Made by a program: the position numbers and the translations under genes. A DNA stretch of 64,000 nt from Escherichia coli (lineage in GTDB: Bacteria; Pseudomonadota; Gammaproteobacteria; Enterobacterales; Enterobacteriaceae): NCBI RefSeq assembly GCF_050920415.1, contig NZ_CP169309.1; one strand, given 5' to 3'. Positions 3,365 to 58,718 of the stretch are shown here, in pieces; position 1 is the stretch's first letter; every line of letters starts with the position of its first letter. The notes under the pieces were generated by a model. That model was not told where the DNA came from, searched no databases, and worked only from the letters and a program-made list of their open reading frames with translations.

Positions 3365-3466
3365 ACTGCCTGATGCGCTGCGCTTATCAGGCCTACAAGG
3401 TTTCTGCAATATATTGAATTTGCAATATTTTGTAGGCCGGATAAGGCGTTCACGCCGCATCCGGCA
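3365..3466. repeat. BIME: two inverted REP palindromes downstream of the flagellin gene
   Basis: gcctgatgcgctgcgcttatcaggcctac … gtaggccggataaggcgttcacgccgcatccggca; classic E. coli REP sequence. A near-identical pair with the same linker occurs at 24050-24152. Confidence 0.75.
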
Positions 3467-32711: not shown

Positions 32712-32800
32712 TAGAGTCGTATGGCGGATAAGGTTTTTACGCCGCATCCGGCAATTGTGCACCGGTGCCTGATGCGACGCTGCGCGTCTTATCAGGCCTA
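32712..32800. repeat. BIME in the divergent lafK / fliM control region
   Basis: atggcggataaggtttttacgccgcatccggcaa … ggtgcctgatgcgacgctgcgcgtcttatcaggcctac. Confidence 0.7.
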
Positions 32801-42589: not shown

Positions 42590-42729
42590 GGTCGGATGCA
42601 GCGTGAACGCATTATTCGGCCTACGGTTCGGGTACAGATTTGTAGGCATGATAAGACGCGTCAGCGTCGCATCAGGCATCAGCGCACAAGTGCCGGATGC
42701 GGCGTAAACGCCTTATCCAGCCTACGCCA
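42590..42729. repeat. BIME with three REP palindromes
   Basis: gtcggatgcagcgtgaacgcattattcggcctac … gtaggcatgataagacgcgtcagcgtcgcatcaggca … gccggatgcggcgtaaacgccttatccagcctac. Confidence 0.75.
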
Positions 42730-48789: not shown

Positions 48790-49101
48790 TTATCCCTCCA
48801 AACAAGACCTGACTCCAGGACAAGAGCATAGTGTGTAGTAAACACATCATGCTCTTGCCCTGACCATTGAAATAACAACTTTCGTTTGTTTACTGTACGC
48901 TGTCTAAATAGCTGCGTGGAATAAAGTTGCACTTTTTATCATCCCTTGTAGAGCAAGATTACGAAAGCCCGCCCCCGCAAGGGCTGACGCGAGGTAGTCT
49001 CTGTCCGCAGCTGCTTTTCACATCTTACATCTTGCCCCTGCCTTGAGTATCTTATCTTTCGTTAAAATATTAATAGCGATCTTCCGTATCCCTGAAAATA
49101 A

Positions 49102-49781
49102 TTATGCTGCATTTCCTCTTCTTATTTTGAAGTCGTCTTTATTCATTACCACTTCCAGATGCCAGTGCAATTTATTCTCCACTTGCCAGTGATTTCGGTT
49201 CGCTGTGGCGAACTTCTCTGCGGTTAAATCAGCAGAAATGCTATAATATCTGACCGTCATTTCGGGATTTTTCTTTTGTTCTGCTATTATTGAGCGAAAT
49301 GAGACTGCCATGCATAATTTCTTCAGCCCTTTCCATTCAAACGTAAAATCAATAAATTCATCAGAGACATGCAAACAATATGAAGACGGATTTTAATGAC
49401 ATAAGTTGCTCCCTTGTGACGAGTTTTATCATAAGAGTGCCGGAGCGTTTTTCCATCAATTGCAATGACGTCTTTATCATCTGAAGAATGACATTCACGC
49501 ATCCGGTTAATAAAGCATTCGTGAAATTTTGCAGGACTGATACATGATACAACTCTGGCAATAGTATCGTGAACAGGAATACCATTTTCAAAATCACCAT
49601 ATTGCTTCAAAAAATCGAGATGAGTTTCCCCGAAATCCTCTATATCTTCCCAGCCTTCTGCACCCGAAATAACGGCGCAAATAGTCAACAGTAGAATATC
49701 CGATAATTTATGCTCCACTTTCCAGGCTTGTCTGTAATCGGGGATAATAGAAATATGTTCCATCAATTTTTTAAGTTCCAT
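49102..49781 (-). pseudogene. ISAs1-family (H-repeat-associated) transposase, internally deleted/frameshifted
   Basis: N-terminal 152 aa ([51 protein letters not shown]…) and a separate 90-aa C-terminal piece (…[30 protein letters not shown]) lie in different frames; the catalytic middle is missing. Confidence 0.7.
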
Positions 49782-49904
49782 TTTGTTCTCCTTAATTATG
49801 TAAGGAGTATTTGATCATGTATAAGCAATAAAAAACAGCTTCAGGTAATGAGGAATATCTCAATTTTTAAACATAAAATGCGAATTATTTAGTACAAAAA
49901 AGCA

Positions 49905-51796
49905 GCGTTAAGTGAGTAGGCCACCGGAACCTCCCCGACAGCCTCTCGCAGAACCGTACGTGAAACTCTCGCTTCATACGGCTCCCGTCAGGCAAACGCG
50001 CTTCCTGGTCCTGCTTTCCAGTGGGCAAACAACTCCGGCTTCTCTTTTGACAGCCTTTCCATTAGCTGACACGCCTTCGTCTTTCTATACCGCAGGGTTT
50101 TATATTTCTTTCTCGCCCACGCAATCAGCGTCAGATTAATATATCTGCATACTTTCTTCATCGCTGATTTGTGGTATCTCGCGTAATAATTCAGCCACCC
50201 CGATATTATCGGATTCAGCCACTTCGCAATATCTTCGAGACTCATCTCCACCCTGCGTCTGATCCACAGTTTCCTGAGTTTTCCAATCATGCCTTTCTGC
50301 GCACGGTTACTCGCCGCCGGGCTGAAACTCGTAAAGAGGTTTCCCCGCCGGTGGTTACGTGCTCTTCGCGCTCTGAACGTATACCCCAGAAAATCAAACT
50401 GCACTGTTTCATGGTTCGCCTGTCGTTCGCTGTCTTTGCAGTAAACTACTTTCGTTTTCTCCGGATGTAATTCCAGTCCACATTCCTGAAAACGTTTTGC
50501 CAGCTTATTCAGTAATTCCTCTGCCTGTTGTTTACTGCCACAATGAATTAATCCATCATCTGCATAACGGCACAGGGAATTTCCGGATAATGTAACGTCA
50601 GCCATTTATCAAACACATAGTGCAGAAATAAATTCGCCAGTACCGGGCTGATGACTCCACCCTGTGGCGTACCTTTATTTCTTTCCTTCAGTGTTCCATC
50701 CGGCATCTGCACCGGCGCTGTCAGCCACCGGCGAATAGACAGTCTTACCCATTTATCCGCACAATGTTTATCTACTGCCCTGAGTAATAAATCGTGGGAG
50801 ATATTATCGAATAACCCTTTAATATCAAACTCAAGACACCAGTCGTATTGCCAGCAACGTTTTCTGGTGACTGCTATTGCATCCAGCGCTGATTTTCCAT
50901 GCCGGTATCCGTATGAATCATTCAGGAAATAACGCTCCACTAATGGTTCAAACGTTACCAGCACCGTCATCTGCGCTATTCGATCGCTTACTGTCGGTAT
51001 TCCTAAAAGTCTTTTGCTGCCATCCTTCTTCGGAATTTCCACCGCACGCACTGGCGGCGGCATCCAGCTTCCCGACGATAACCTGTTCCAGATTTTGTAC
51101 AGATTTCCTTTCAGATCCCGCTCAAAATCTTTCAGCGTCTGGTTATCCACTCCGGCAGCTCCGGCATTCGCCTTTATCCGCCGGTACGCTTCCACCACAT
51201 GCAATTTACTGACCTGAAACGGTTTTGTCTGTTCACACACAGCCTCCTCCTGCCTACAGTTGGGCTGTGATGCAGACTGCCCGACGCTGTCCCTTCGCTC
51301 CACGTTCATTACAAACGCTTCCTCACTACTACGAACAGCTCTGCCCCGGTTTCGCACATCGATACTCTCATACTCATAATTTCGGTTATTTGTATTTCTC
51401 TCTTGAAATTGCGACGACCGGTTCCCGTAGTTCCTGCAAAGAGCCTGATACAGCGTCATGCCTGCTATACACCGGACACCATTCACGCAGCATTCGGAAT
51501 TCACCCGTAAATTAATCCCGGCGGTATCACGAAACCTCCGGTTTTGATGTCACTTAGGACTAACGACGTTTCAACACAGGTTCGGGTTTACTCATCTCAC
51601 TGTATCTCACATAGGATCAGATCTCGTCTGATCGTTCCCCCTGCGCTCACTACCATGGCTCTTTACCACAGCAGCCGGGGTTGTTTGGGACCGACTTCCG
51701 ACAGCAGATCCCGGTGGGCCTGCCACCATCTCTTCACAAGCTTATGCTTATTACATGCAAAACGTCCCGTTTTGCATCTTTGTGCCTACGGCACAC
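49905..51796 (-). mobile_element. Bacterial group II intron (about 1.9 kb)
   Basis: 5' end GTGTG on the minus strand (complement of cacac at 51792-51796); RT/maturase ORF; domain V-like hairpin gagccgtatgaagcgagagtttcacgtacggttc (complement of 49951-49984) just after the ORF stop. 3' boundary is approximate. Confidence 0.65.
49988..51309 (-). pseudogene. Group II intron reverse transcriptase/maturase, frameshifted
   Basis: RT motifs (…GIPTVSDRIAQ…, …TPQGGVISPVLANLFLHYVFD…) in ORF 50548-51504; YADD and maturase domain X (…GWLNYYARY…) in ORF 49988-50605. The two parts are in different frames. Confidence 0.7.
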
Positions 51797-51843
51797 GATG
51801 ATCTTTCCCTGATTACTTGACCTTTCCCTGGGAGTACAGAGTG

Positions 51844-51942: not shown

Positions 51943-54042
51943 TTAACCTCGGCTCACCGTTTTCGATTCCATCCAATAAATGACCCGGTTGGATGTGGGC
52001 TGATCGCCAACAACTTTGCCATCTGCAGAGATTAGCTTCAGCTCTTTATTAGCCTCATCACCGAAGTAAATCATGCGGTAGCGAAAATAACCGCCCCAGG
52101 GTTCGCGTCCACCCAGCGAACTTTGCATAAACCAGGCGCGGGAGTCGTGAACCTGGTCATCATAGAGAGCCAGTAATTCAGCGCAGGGCTGAGTTCGCGT
52201 TCGCGTTCCCGTTCCCAGTGAATCAATAAAAAATTGTGGATAGAGTCCGTTTCCCATAGCCTTAATTTGTTGATATTCCTTTGCTTCATCATCGCCATTA
52301 ATCAGATACACCGGATATTTAGGAATGACATCCACAAGAATCTGAATGGCTTTCTCCGTGACGCTGCCGTTAATATCGCGCGTCCATCCTTTATAATCGC
52401 TCTGAAATTCTCGGGCTGCCTCTCGCAATTGGTACTGAGCGTTCGTCGGGTCAAGGATAGGTATGCCCTGATTACTTTCATCAAGTGTGCCATTGCCTTT
52501 CTGCGTGTTCGCCCGCTCTTTTTCGATATTTTCCATTTGTTCTTCGCGCGCTTGGGCCTCTTTATCAAGTCCATCTTTATCCAGCTGTGGCGCCTTAATA
52601 TAAAAAGGTTGCACAAGAAGGCTGTTGTTCGCATAGCGACCGATACGCCAGGCGGTGATCCAGCCGATCTGATCGCTAATTGCGCTTTCAAGAACCTGGG
52701 CAAGTTGATAGGGGTGATAACCTTCCCTCGTATCAATCATTTCTTCTGTACCCTGCAAGGTGGTGTTCAGCAGCGTTTGTCGCCAGATGTTGAAGCGTTT
52801 TGTTAATGAATTAGCAATCGTAAATTCCTTTACGCTAGAAGGACTCATAATTCGCAGAGGCGACACACCTTTTATTAATGGAGTAACAAATTTAGAATAA
52901 ACAGCAAGTGGTGCTCCTGAATCAAATGCAGCAAGATACATATCATGCAGGGCTATCTGAGAAAGAATTTCGCCTGAGTCACCACAGGACTTCCCCTGAT
53001 CGCGAACGGGATAGCCACCACCGACATCAGAGTGCATCCCCGGATAGATAACTTCCTCTGCATATAAAGGATAATTGCCTTCAGGACGACGGATTGAATC
53101 CAGCGGAAAGCACAACCGCTGTTCATGCGCAGCGACGAAGTGGCGGCAGCATTTAATCAGGCCGGGAAACTGCGTCTCATCAGGGAGTTGCTGAGTACTA
53201 TCGGCCCATCCCATATGACCGGCTGCGCCCGGTAAAACATGCGCCGCCCCCACAGAAGCTACGGTATCCAGCAGCCCCAAAAACTCAATACTGACAGCTA
53301 AACCGGCCAGCATCACCTGTTGCCTCTGCGGGCAAGCTAACTGAGTCAACCAGTTAACAAAAGTTCGTGCTTCCGCTGCGCCACGGGAAAATCCGTAGAT
53401 AAACAGCCTTACGTTTAGCAGGCGCGGACTAGCTTGTTCTAACTGTCCCTGTAATTTTTCCAGGTAGGGGTTAATCACATTGCGACGATTCACTTCACCA
53501 GTCATCGGCCAAGGAGCACGCATAAGAGGAATGTGCTCTTTTGCCACCTTCTCATTCAGTCCATTTTGGGTTGGGTCAATAGCATAGCTAAGGGCATCCA
53601 CGAGACGTAATAATGCCCAATTAATTCGGTCTTCACCACCGGTGGCAAATTCCAGTCCGCTGTTGCTGTAATCCATTTCACCTATCTTGGGAAATGGTGT
53701 GCCTACACCAGGTATGTAATAGGAAAAATACCCAGCATTACGGTCTTTAATACTTGCGTGGAATAATTTCGCAATATTGGTTGGATGAGAGGCTTTTGTG
53801 TCATTATATTCATTATTATTTGTACCATCAAAAAACAGACTAATATGCAGACTTTGACTACATGTAAAGCCAATTCTAAATCCAGCCTGTTTACTACAGT
53901 TGGTTTTGTGCTCCTCTGTTTTATTGATTTGTTTCAGGTAGTTCGCGTTTACCTGCGCTTCAGATAATATTAATCGCCCATCTTCAGGGAACACCGGGGG
54001 GGCATAACACGGAAAAGCCAGACCACTTATTTCGCTGGACAT
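51943..54042 (-). CDS. tle1: Type VI secretion phospholipase effector, Tle1-family (DUF2235 alpha/beta hydrolase)
   Basis: Start at internal Met (MSSEISGL…), 699 aa; N-terminal …LFFDGTNNN… motif and GxSxG nucleophile elbow (IYGFSRGAAEA) characteristic of Tle1/DUF2235. Confidence 0.75.
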   Translation of the reverse strand: MSSEISGLAFPCYAPPVFPEDGRLILSEAQVNANYLKQINKTEEHKTNCSKQAGFRIGFTCSQSLHISLFFDGTNNNEYNDTKASHPTNIAKLFHASIKDRNAGYFSYYIPGVGTPFPKIGEMDYSNSGLEFATGGEDRINWALLRLVDALSYAIDPTQNGLNEKVAKEHIPLMRAPWPMTGEVNRRNVINPYLEKLQGQLEQASPRLLNVRLFIYGFSRGAAEARTFVNWLTQLACPQRQQVMLAGLAVSIEFLGLLDTVASVGAAHVLPGAAGHMGWADSTQQLPDETQFPGLIKCCRHFVAAHEQRLCFPLDSIRRPEGNYPLYAEEVIYPGMHSDVGGGYPVRDQGKSCGDSGEILSQIALHDMYLAAFDSGAPLAVYSKFVTPLIKGVSPLRIMSPSSVKEFTIANSLTKRFNIWRQTLLNTTLQGTEEMIDTREGYHPYQLAQVLESAISDQIGWITAWRIGRYANNSLLVQPFYIKAPQLDKDGLDKEAQAREEQMENIEKERANTQKGNGTLDESNQGIPILDPTNAQYQLREAAREFQSDYKGWTRDINGSVTEKAIQILVDVIPKYPVYLINGDDEAKEYQQIKAMGNGLYPQFFIDSLGTGTRTRTQPCAELLALYDDQVHDSRAWFMQSSLGGREPWGGYFRYRMIYFGDEANKELKLISADGKVVGDQPTSNRVIYWMESKTVSRG

Positions 54043-57547: not shown

Positions 57548-58718
57548 ATGCTGAGCAGAGAGGACTTTTACATGATAAAGCAAATGCGCCAGCAAGGTGC
57601 GTATATTGTTGATATTGCCACTCAGGTTGGTTGCTCTGAGCGGACTGTCAGACGGTACCTGAAATACCCGGAACCTCCGGCCAGAAAAACACGCCACAAA
57701 ATGGCCAAACTCAAGCCGTTCATGGACTATATCGACATGCGTCTGGCTGAGAATGTCTGGAACGGCGAGGTCATCCTGGCGGAAATCAAAGCGATGGGTT
57801 ATACCGGTGGCCGTTCCATGTTGCGTTACTACATCCAGCCCAAACGTAAGATGCGGCCATCGAAGAAAACGGTTCGCTTCGAAACTCAGCCCGGTTACCA
57901 GCTACAGCATGACTGGGGAGAAGTTGAGGCTGAGGTTGCCGGGCAACGATGCAGGGTTAACTTCGCGGTTAATACGCTGGGGTTCTCACGTCGCTTCCAT
58001 GTCTTCGCGGCACCAAAGCAGGATGCTGAACATACCTATGAGTCACTGGTCCGCGCCTTTCGCTACTTCGGCGGCAGCGTGAAAACCGTGCTGGTCGATA
58101 ACCAGAAAGCCGCAGTGCTGAAAAATAACAACGGGAAGGTGGTGTTCAACTCCGGGTTCCTGCTGCTGGCCAATCACTATGGCTTCCTGCCACGGGCCTG
58201 CCGTCCACGAAGGGCCAGAACCAAAGGTAAGGTGGAACGGATGGTGAAATACCTCAAGGAAAACTTCTTCGTCCGGTACCGCCGGTTCGACAGCTTCGCC
58301 CATGTTAATCAGCTACTGGAGCAGTGGATGGCTGACGTTGCCGACAGGCGGGAACTTCGCCAGTTCAGGCAGACACCGGAACAGCGCTTCACGCAGGAAC
58401 AGGTGCATCTGCAGGCGCTGCCAGGTACGGACTTCGATACCAGCTACTTCGATATCCGTCATGTCTCCTGGGATGGCTATATCGAGGTTGGCGGGAACCG
58501 TTACAGCGTGCCGGAAAGCCTGTGTGGCCAGCCGGTATCAATACGGATCTCGCTGGATGATGAACTGCGATTTACAGTAATGAGCAACAGGTAGCATCGC
58601 ACCGTCTCTGTTCGGCTGTATACGGCTGGCAGACCGTGCCGGAGCATCACGCCCCACTCTGGCAGCAGGTCAGTCAGGTGGAACACAGGCCGTTGAGTGC
58701 CTATGAGGAGCTGTTGTG

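Follow-up and report, generated by a model that had tools for sequence, protein, structure and literature searches.

A copy of the group II intron E.c.I9 in the left inverted repeat of an ISAs1/H-repeat remnant of Escherichia coli, recorded with a one-base frameshift in its maturase gene

A group II intron inside an ISAs1 end

The window analyzed here is a 64,000-nucleotide stretch of the E. coli contig NZ_CP169309.1 (assembly GCF_050920415.1), and its features at this locus are collected in Table 1. Read along the minus strand, tle1 is followed in the same orientation by the outer part of an ISAs1 left inverted repeat, by an element of 1886 nt, and by the rest of the insertion sequence (IS). 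The tle1 gene is context and not a part of the element; a terminator-like site, sought on the minus strand from tle1 to the intron, was not found.

The 1886-nt element is a complete group II intron with all the described features present. The initial annotation had proposed such an intron from a 5' GUGUG, a reverse transcriptase (RT)/maturase ORF, and a domain V-like hairpin right after the ORF stop, and each of these was recovered here together with covariance matches to domains I–IV and V/VI. The intron starts with GUGUGCC from position 51796, of which GUGUG (51796–51792) agrees with the conserved GUGYG and is identical across all copies examined. RF01999 (group-II-D1D4-2) matched 51727–51610 over its full-length model (1–118) with 93.1 bits (gathering score 36, E 1e-17), and RF00029 (domains V/VI) matched 49986–49911 with 62.8 bits (gathering score 40, E 5e-10), both above their gathering scores. 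Domain V begins 4 nt past the ORF stop codon (49990–49988); in the predicted fold, its 2-nt bulge is CG and its GAGA loop fits GNRA. Folding the 5' 507 nt as a single sequence by minimum free energy gave no recognizable domain I, and this fold was left unused.

Table 1. Features of the intron locus, in positions of the window
Feature	Position	Strand	Basis or remark
tle1, T6SS phospholipase effector gene	51943..54042	-	699 aa from ATG 54042
5' exon, outer 15 nt of ISAs1 left inverted repeat (CAGGGAAAGATCATC)	51797..51811	-	ISEc1/ISAs1 end comparison
Group II intron, copy of E.c.I9	49911..51796	-	Rfam at both ends and ISAs1-end comparison
Domain I segment, Rfam group-II-D1D4-2	51610..51727	-	93.1 bits
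Tentative EBS2 (UCCU)	51556..51559	-	complements exon -14..-11 (AGGG), 4 bp
EBS1 hairpin CCGGAGG-UUUCGUGAUA-CCGCCGG	51518..51541	-	homology to E.c.I2-like intron hairpin
N-terminal fragment, 253 aa, RT fingers and part of palm	50548..51309	-	premature stop, ends ...HYPEIPCAVMQMMD
Frameshift site, CCC-TGG-TGC to CCC-TG-TGC	50572..50573	-	one G of GG lost
C-terminal frame CRYADDG...	49988..50571	-	YADD, thumb/X maturase domain, short C-terminal tail
Domain V, 34-nt hairpin	49951..49984	-	AGC triad, 2-nt bulge, GAGA tetraloop (fold and RF00029)
Domain VI	49914..49949	-	bulged branch-point A at 49917, 7 nt from 3' end
3' exon, rest of host ISAs1/H-rpt	49020..49910	-	NF033564 on ORF 49781-49323; end coordinate approximate

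We set the intron boundaries by comparing uninterrupted with intron-bearing ISAs1 ends. The 3' end had been placed at 49905; the Rfam alignment and the uninterrupted ends move it to 49911 (...CUCACU). The insertion lies between nt 15 and nt 16 of the left inverted repeat, and the interrupted end reads CAGGGAAAGATCAYS/intron/TAACGCTGC... (slashes mark junctions here and below). Uninterrupted ISEc1/ISAs1 copies start with the corresponding 15 nt, CAGGGAAAGATCACG/TAACGC, and the uninterrupted end CAGGGAAAGATCACG/TAACGCTGC occurs in thousands of genomes. At locus L011, the exons of the intron rejoin exactly into ISEc1 sequence, a precise empty-site match; the left and right ISAs1 repeats, CAGGGAAAGAT(C/T)ACG..., were compared at locus L003. 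The 3' exon comprises the inner left repeat, TAACGCTGC..., and then the transposase gene, in which NF033564 (ISAs1 transposase) matched a 152-aa ORF (49781–49323) with E 8e-36. The host ISAs1 copy is a decayed remnant, since its transposase gene is frameshifted and 3'-truncated in the window; in the sister genome, this gene is annotated "frameshifted; internal stop". The initial annotation had put the element in non-coding DNA, with tle1 on one side and an ISAs1 fragment on the other: tle1 does adjoin it, but the intron is inside the ISAs1 left repeat itself.

Identity and relatives of the intron

With a probability of about 0.97, the element is a full-length copy of E.c.I9 at its usual target in ISAs1/H-repeat. 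It is not new: E.c.I9 is an already catalogued mobile group II intron of E. coli, and the position after nt 15 of the left repeat is its known homing site (PMC3522654). The name was given to the ATCC 8739 copy by Leclercq and Cordaux (2012) (PMC3522654, text and Table S2), who list E.c.I9 under "D" and "in a Rhs region", describe its target as a Rhs-associated IS (ISEc1-5) at a position other than that of E.c.I2, and report 193-bp and 159-bp fragments elsewhere. We independently reproduced both fragment lengths, and we take the listing as class D from the "D" column of that table. A literature search for "H-rpt" with group II intron was without result; the name E.c.I9 comes from PMC3522654.

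Over its full length of 1886 nt, the window intron has 96.3% identity with the ATCC 8739 copy and 70 differences from it (69 substitutions and one missing G); intact copies measure 1887 nt. The two share the ends GUGUGCC...CUCACU, a 440-aa RT and maturase protein lacking an endonuclease domain, and an insertion after nt 15 of the ISAs1/H-rpt left repeat in a Rhs/T6SS effector region. They differ in the EBS1 loop (UUUCGUGAUA in the window and CAUGAUGAUA in ATCC 8739, with two nearby changes too), in the 3' exon of the host IS end (TAACGC versus AGAAGT), and in locus (tle1 versus RhsE-ydcC), and the ORF deletion belongs to the window copy. Closer still is the copy at locus L002, from which the window intron differs solely by the missing G.

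E.c.I2, likewise listed under class D (PMC3522654), was represented in our comparison by the E.c.I2-like intron of strain CB209 (locus L003). This 1891-nt intron is housed in the same ISAs1/H-rpt family and is ~71%–75% identical to E.c.I9, with a matching 5' GUGUGCC, a matching ...CUCAC(C/U) 3' end, and a homologous EBS1 hairpin. Its insertion site, however, is in the transposase ORF (CGTCTGGACG/TGGTAATG) instead of the inverted repeat, and it has CGUCCAG as EBS1. E.c.I2 has been grouped with RmInt1 because its first intron base pairs with the penultimate one in an unusual way (PMC8283771, Table 1), and the penultimate base of E.c.I9 is likewise C, not A. RmInt1 (Sr.me.I1) of Sinorhizobium meliloti, the studied model of endonuclease-less class D introns, was likened to E.c.I9 by description: it too encodes an RT and maturase without an endonuclease domain and homes into an insertion sequence. 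More distant are the solved group II intron RTs, namely GsI-IIC RT (6ar1), the RT/maturase 7uim, the maturase RT 6me0, and LtrA (5g2x). These are homologous to the window protein over the RT and thumb/X (E 4e-42 to 2e-28), a match that speaks for family membership only.

The intron-encoded protein and the missing G

The ORF is placed between the domain I–III region and domain V, that is, in domain IV. As recorded in the window, it is split into two frames between the HYPEIP and YADD motifs, as the initial annotation had stated, and we could trace the split to one missing G at 50573. The intact allele reads CCCTGGTGC and the deletion allele CCCTGTGC; the lost base falls in the PWCRYADD stretch, three codons ahead of YADD. 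For the N-terminal fragment, we used the start codon annotated for the intact ltrA in NZ_CP169399.1. The repaired ORF matched Pfam RVT_1 (5e-41) and GIIM (3e-13, residues 339–410 of the repaired protein) as well as NCBIfam TIGR04416 (427 bits against a cut-off of 300), in agreement with the RT/maturase first proposed. A Pfam search past GIIM found no domain, hence no endonuclease (HNH), and the protein ends ~30 aa later. Intact copies encode a 440-aa protein, WP_001100279.1. The 90% cluster of this protein is headed by an RHS core protein, which we dismissed as a clustering artefact and not a fusion because the RHS core and the intron protein have no similarity.

Could the RT instead belong to a retron or a defence RT (DRT), with the RNA matches fortuitous? 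Weak NCBIfam matches to Drt3a, Drt2, and retron RTs point that way, but their scores stay below the respective cut-offs (Drt3a 77 versus 200, Drt2 60 versus 390, retron St85 57 versus 235), whereas TIGR04416 clears its own. Each end of the element is also matched exactly by one of two independent intron covariance models, and the element is precisely missing from uninterrupted ISAs1 ends. We consider that these observations refute a retron or DRT origin and give it practically no credence. Only marginally more credible is a real frameshift that ribosomes overcome by programmed -1 frameshifting at AUU-CCC-UGU. Read from the sequence, ribosomes slipping by -1 after CCC would regain the downstream frame and yield a full-length protein (...IPLCRYADD...). 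We rejected this because there is no slippery site, an X-XXY-YYZ heptamer being absent; moreover, all 92 other copies have a plain uninterrupted ORF with the extra G, and the sister copy with the deletion is annotated as a pseudogene.

Whether the G is missing from the DNA or only from its consensus is a closer question, and we lean slightly toward a genuine loss of 1 nt (GG to G at 50573). Among the copies at the tle1 locus, only that of the window lacks the base: the G is present at 7 loci from 6 other assemblies, and nothing else separates the window from assemblies L019 and L020 over 9.3 kb. This speaks for a consensus or assembly error, for example in long-read basecalling at a Dcm-methylated CCTGG, to which we assign somewhat less than an even chance; the true copy would then be intact, encode the 440-aa WP_001100279.1, and be potentially autonomous. 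Systematic consensus errors of long reads are known to occur at CCWGG motifs. Because the missing base lies within a Dcm CCTGG motif, and CCWGG covers just 1.2% of window positions, the error is a serious alternative. Against it, both occurrences of the deletion allele are in a single lineage, and the remaining 92 of 93 copies in 83 complete genomes do not have it; many of the assemblies that hold these 92 places are presumably long-read ones, and 11 genomes keep the G in an otherwise identical 91-bp context.

The second occurrence is in the sister genome MFDS1022581, a genome of 99.97% identity that carries E.c.I9 at 3 places. Its copy at the ybfD/phrB locus, a different one from that in the window, has the identical deletion and is annotated "frameshifted" by NCBI, i.e., as a pseudogene. 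A site-specific technical error would produce just this recurrence, and the exact truncated 253-aa product is recorded from one contig only (MFDS1022581) among ~15 billion proteins. Both occurrences belong to one clonal lineage, however, and inheritance or gene conversion fits too. Gene conversion would need a very short tract, as 3 SNPs in the intron, the closest at a distance of 124 nt, set the sister frameshifted copy apart from the window copy. MFDS1022581 is also weakened as a witness because its tle1 has a probable homopolymer error (C6 versus C7), a further point for the error. The window assembly itself does not look error-prone, since it has one or two indels on its side in 58 kb compared with the sister genome, at most one of them (TA, 57800–57801) besides the missing G. 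Taken as a genuine deletion, the lesion is very recent judging by its sequence, as nothing else sets the copy apart from intact ones.

The proposal that the element is probably immobile unless complemented thus holds in that the copy, as recorded, does not make its own protein; it depends, though, on one base that is possibly a consensus error.

Exon pairing, mobility, and distribution

We assigned the EBS1 loop by homology to the E.c.I2-like intron (L003), whose loop, CGUCCAG, pairs without a mismatch over 7 nt with the 5' exon of that intron, CUGGACG; between E.c.I9 and that intron, the EBS1 stem has undergone a compensatory G:C to A:U change. The EBS1 of the window intron, CGUGAU (51531–51526), pairs perfectly with AUCACG of ISEc1-type ends, as found at L011 and L006. 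The 5' exon of the window has AUCAUC as IBS1 and AGGG as candidate IBS2, and AUCAUC forms 4 Watson–Crick pairs with EBS1, a G.U at -2, and a C x C mismatch at -1. This mispairing of EBS1 with the 5' exon at -1 and -2 is a second defect that was absent from the initial annotation and should reduce splicing further.

The EBS2 is tentative. We read UCCU by eye from the alignment, in which the corresponding columns of the E.c.I2-like intron, CCAG, complement exon positions -14..-11 of that intron (CUGG); the automated complementarity scan did not report UCCU. That scan, of domain I against exon -22..-7, returned scattered 5–6-nt matches only and no firm EBS2 or EBS3, and no tie to IBS3 was found for positions 245 and 247, where the two E.c.I9 variants diverge.

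These variants are distinguished by their EBS1, CGUGAU or GAUGAU. The former complements ...AUCACG/UAACGC and the latter ...AUCAUC/AGAAGU, which are two subtypes of E. coli H-rpt/ISAs1 left ends. The "wrong" 5' exon was present in the window, at L002 and L007, and in all three variant-B copies examined, and a matched exon at L011 and L006 only. Homing into a rare ...ATCATC/TAACGC end was considered and rejected: no uninterrupted end of this kind was found in 5426 complete genomes, where the best full-length matches were 72/74.

By analogy with endonuclease-less introns such as RmInt1, the intron would be co-transcribed with the IS or the tle1 region, and its splicing would be assisted by the maturase. 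RmInt1-type introns reverse splice at replication forks and take their primer from nascent DNA. On this model, the E.c.I9 lariat–protein particle would recognize ISAs1 left ends via EBS1/IBS1 pairing (CGUGAU with AUCACG), to which a short EBS2/IBS2 pairing probably contributes, and would then reverse splice into the DNA and be copied by the RT from a replication-fork primer. In the window copy as recorded, the deletion would cut the protein before YADD and part it from the maturase domain. Because of this truncation, efficient splicing and movement of the copy would be expected to require protein provided in trans by another E.c.I9 copy.

Full-length E.c.I9 is present in ~1.5% of complete E. 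coli genomes, and 193-nt 5' stubs of the intron in ~47%. From the distribution of matched and mismatched 5' exons it is conceivable, although we think it unlikely, that the 1.9-kb copies and the 193-nt stubs serve as portable homology, through which recombination swaps the DNA upstream of H-rpt elements. If this were true, Rhs/T6SS effector-immunity modules would be swapped, and the intron would be a driver of effector shuffling and not a passive passenger.

Beyond correct annotation, the importance of the finding is slight. An apt annotation would be E.c.I9 in the left inverted repeat of an ISAs1/H-rpt remnant, with an ltrA pseudogene (or a possible sequencing error). A pseudogene should not be called from a one-base frameshift in CCWGG, in a repeat copy without other differences, until that frameshift has been verified. 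Overall, the locus illustrates the dynamics of decay and extinction that earlier work described in group II introns of enterobacteria.

Boundaries and insertion site of the intron

An Rfam scan of the whole window returned two intron matches, one at each end of the reported interval and both above their gathering thresholds, confirming that a group II intron lies on the minus strand, as the initial annotation had proposed. The intron begins at 51796, where the minus strand reads ...CAGGGAAAGATCATC/GUGUGCCGUAGG... (5' exon/intron start). Its 3' end had been put at 49905, which is 6 nt too far: the end of the Rfam alignment places it at 49911 (...CUCACU), as does homology with an E.c.I2-like intron that ends ...CUCACC, one base past 'CAC', and whose empty site CGTCTGGACG/TGGTAATG is found in the same locus (L003, strain CB209). 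With the end at 49911, moreover, rejoining the exons leaves no extra T. The domain V-like hairpin noted right after the ORF stop was recovered as well, with domain V starting 4 nt past the stop codon, and the predicted domain V has the textbook form.

Features of the window discussed in the text
Feature	Position	Strand	Details
RF01999 (group-II-D1D4-2)	51727-51610	minus	93.1 bits, gathering 36, E 1e-17, full model
RF00029 (domain V/VI)	49986-49911	minus	62.8 bits, gathering 40
Domain V	49984-49951	minus	34 nt, AGC triad, 2-nt bulge, GAGA loop (fold of 49990-49911)
Domain VI	49917	minus	position is that of the bulged A, 7 nt from intron end (same fold of 49990-49911)
EBS2 candidate	51559-51556		UCCU
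Partial ISAs1 left-end-like motif	51830-51818	minus	CAGGGAAAGGTCA
33-bp sequence	51876-51844	minus	just downstream of tle1 stop
Repeat of 33-bp sequence	~47425-47393	minus	32/33
tle1 5' end	53996-54042	minus	C7 run
TA insertion	57800-57801		2 nt, in IS21 istA
Flag-2 lateral-flagella cluster	~1-40000		lafA, flgB-L, fliE-R, flhAB
naRNA4 (REP/BIME-derived nucleoid-associated RNA) + ES036 sRNA	42645-42722; 32722-32798; 3389-3431	minus; plus; minus	Rfam; unrelated to intron

The intron had been assigned to non-coding DNA between tle1, a T6SS phospholipase effector gene, and an ISAs1 fragment; it actually lies within the ISAs1 left inverted repeat. The uninterrupted ISEc1/ISAs1 left end is CAGGGAAAGATCACGTAACGCTGCTTTTTTGTAC (loci L004 and L003), and the right end is an imperfect inverted repeat, CAGGGAAAGATTACGAAAGCC. 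In the window, the left end is split into CAGGGAAAGATCATC and TAACGCTGCTTTTTTGTAC on either side of the intron, and joining the two exons of strain 2017-02-2CC (L011) restores the exact ISEc1 sequence. Judging from these sequences, we thus place the insertion after nt 15 of the left repeat, codirectional with the transposase. The site within this mobile element is precisely empty elsewhere. The transposase gene of the host IS is frameshifted and 3'-truncated, and this IS is dead. Upstream, tle1 lies 146 nt from the intron in the same orientation, and we found no terminator-like site between the two, making read-through transcription from tle1 into the intron plausible. The tle1-intron-ISAs1 layout occurs in at least four other assemblies; in a second layout, the intron is downstream of a VgrG-pyocin effector, beside ybfD/phrB.

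A gap of 6 nt separates the partial left-end-like motif from the 15-nt 5' exon downstream, and FDAARGOS_1059 has a similar tandem, CAGGGAAAGATCA-CAGGGAAAGATCATCG, before its 193-nt intron stub; such tandem motifs suggest repeated IS insertions or rearrangements at these ends. The second site of the 33-bp repeat adjoins the yafV end, beside a second ISAs1 fragment, and the two sites may represent a junction that was duplicated and now flanks the intron/ISAs1/two-gene segment.

The intron-encoded protein and its missing base

With one base restored, the ORF matched Pfam RVT_1 (5e-41) and GIIM (3e-13) as well as NCBIfam TIGR04416, 'group II intron reverse transcriptase/maturase' (427 bits; cut-off, 300). 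No Pfam domain followed GIIM, and the protein thus lacks an endonuclease domain. The nearest solved structures are group II intron RTs (GsI-IIC RT, the RT/maturase of 7uim, and LtrA); a retron or DRT identity was rejected, the NCBIfam models scoring far below their cut-offs. The 90%-identity cluster of the intact intron protein (P0016) is headed by a 1406-aa RHS core protein (P0017) without similarity to it, a clustering artefact that probably stems from chained partial gene calls across Rhs-intron junctions.

The nearest complete genome, E. coli MFDS1022581 (NZ_CP169399.1; 99.97% identity over ~58 kb of the window), carries an intact 440-aa ltrA (WP_001100279.1) at the same locus, and a base-by-base comparison gave 1 difference in 2.7 kb. 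Where the intact copy has ATT CCC TGG TGC CGT TAT GCA GAT GAT (I P W C R Y A D D), the window copy has ATT CCC TG- TGC, one G of GG being absent next to 50573. The RT is thus split exactly where the initial annotation had it, between HYPEIP and YADD. The frameshifted product is a 253-aa N-terminal piece ending ...HYPEIPCAVMQMMD at the stop, and the YADD motif and the entire maturase domain fall in the other frame. As recorded, the window copy makes neither a complete RT nor a maturase. On that reading it would be non-autonomous, a passenger that needs an intact E.c.I9 copy at another genomic locus for its rescue; of the three copies in the sister genome MFDS1022581, at least one is intact.

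We favor a real mutation as the source of the missing G, with a probability of about 0.55. The same deletion is present in a second copy of MFDS1022581 (ybfD/phrB locus, annotated 'frameshifted') and in 0 of the other 92 places carrying the segment, placing both occurrences in one lineage, and the window shows almost no further indels relative to its relatives. These observations count against a sequencing or consensus artefact, which we nevertheless hold to be a serious contender at a little under even odds. Seven tle1-locus copies from six other assemblies carry the G, and its absence is the sole difference in 9.3 kb between the window and loci L019 and L020. The missing base falls inside CCTGG; Dcm motifs, a classic site of residual long-read consensus errors, make up only 1.2% of window positions. 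An artefact is further favored by the 3 intron SNPs separating the two frameshifted copies, the closest at a distance of 124 nt, which would call for a very short gene-conversion tract, by a probable homopolymer error in tle1 of the sister assembly (C6 versus C7), and by the recording of the exact truncated protein from one contig only. Restoration of the protein by programmed frameshifting is very unlikely, since the site lacks a slippery heptamer and the ORF is plain in every other copy.

Target recognition and predicted mobility

Intron positions 256-279 form a hairpin whose loop varies between relatives. The E.c.I2-like loop, CGUCCAG, is the perfect complement of its own 5' exon, CUGGACG, and its stem has A:U in place of a G:C pair of E.c.I9, a compensatory change, which marks this as the EBS1 loop. 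The window has variant A, with loop UUUCGUGAUA (also in L002, L007, L010, L011, and L006) and EBS1 CGUGAU, which pairs perfectly with AUCACG, the ISEc1-type exon of L011 and L006. In the window, L002, and L007, the exon is AUCAUC, giving a C x C mismatch at splice-site position -1 and G.U at -2; 5' splice-site pairing in the window copy is predicted to be weakened. None of 5426 genomes had an uninterrupted ISAs1 end ...ATCATC/TAACGC, suggesting that the mismatch arose after insertion or by recombination. Variant B (ATCC 8739 (L009), L012, and L014) has loop CAUGAUGAUA and carries exon AUCACG; its GAUGAU would fit the other of the two ISAs1 left-end subtypes, ...AUCAUC/AGAAGU. The differences between the two variants fall within intron positions 245-272 and, besides the loop, include positions 245 and 247. 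L011 and L006 alone combine an exon with its fitting EBS1; L010 has a mismatch at -1, and the window and ATCC 8739 lineages show 'crossed' combinations. The EBS2 candidate would form 4 bp with exon positions -14 to -11 (AGGG), its one support being a CCAG/CUGG pair at the homologous place in the E.c.I2-like intron, as seen in the alignment.

The window element comprises the components of a mobile group II intron, RNA as well as protein. By analogy with RmInt1-type endonuclease-less introns, the maturase would promote splicing after transcription, and the lariat-protein particle would use EBS1, and probably also EBS2, to pair with the single-stranded DNA of ISAs1 left ends at a replication fork, reverse-splice into it, and have the intron copied by the RT. 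The E.c.I2-like intron (L003 4086-5976; 1891 nt; ~71-75% identical to E.c.I9) breaks the ISAs1 transposase ORF at CGTCTGGACG/TGGTAATG, whereas E.c.I9 occupies the left inverted repeat; the EBS1 of the E.c.I2-like intron fits its own exon perfectly. In L003, an intact ISEc1 lies directly downstream of the E.c.I2-like intron.

Distribution and genomic surroundings

The intron is 96.3% identical to the E. coli ATCC 8739 copy (70 differences in 1886 nt), which Leclercq and Cordaux (2012; PMC3522654) named E.c.I9; they describe E.c.I2 and E.c.I9 as introns that 'specifically target Rsh IS (= ISEc1-5)' and 'Rsh IS at another position', and list E.c.I9 under 'D' together with fragments of 193 and 159 bp. 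We reached these fragment lengths independently. In FDAARGOS_1059 (L001 2501-2735, rhsE-ydcC locus), sequence corresponding to window 51811-51604 occurs upstream of ydcC and breaks off at exactly intron nt 193. The first 193 nt as query matched 2563 of 5426 complete E. coli genomes (~47%), with matches ending at 193 and 159; these stubs directly precede a complete ISAs1 left end, and RefSeq annotates nothing over them. Full-length copies are rare: a 91-bp ORF segment occurs in 93 places in 83 genomes, and some copies are broken by IS1 or IS3 or have an internal stop.

Most of the window is the Flag-2 cluster; between flgA and flgM it is interrupted by a gene pair for a DNA cytosine methyltransferase and a type II restriction endonuclease, and a HicAB toxin-antitoxin pair comes after flhA, all as assigned from the near-identical sister genome's annotation. 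With its C7 run, tle1 of the window retains a 699-aa product that starts at ATG, like tle1 in L017 and L019; with C6, the MFDS1022581 gene has its annotated start at a later GVG (684-688 aa), reflecting either a homopolymer error in that assembly or a phase-variable length. The TA insertion is relative to MFDS1022581, where istA is annotated as frameshifted.

Earlier publications already cover the element, including its class, IS target, and tendency to break down into stubs; the window adds one more copy, whose lesion is private, possibly spurious, and a single base. Mild novelty is confined to the occurrence of two EBS1 variants and of crossed pairings of exon and EBS1; these hint that intron copies and stubs might serve as recombination substrates at Rhs/T6SS effector loci, a reading that we consider improbable.
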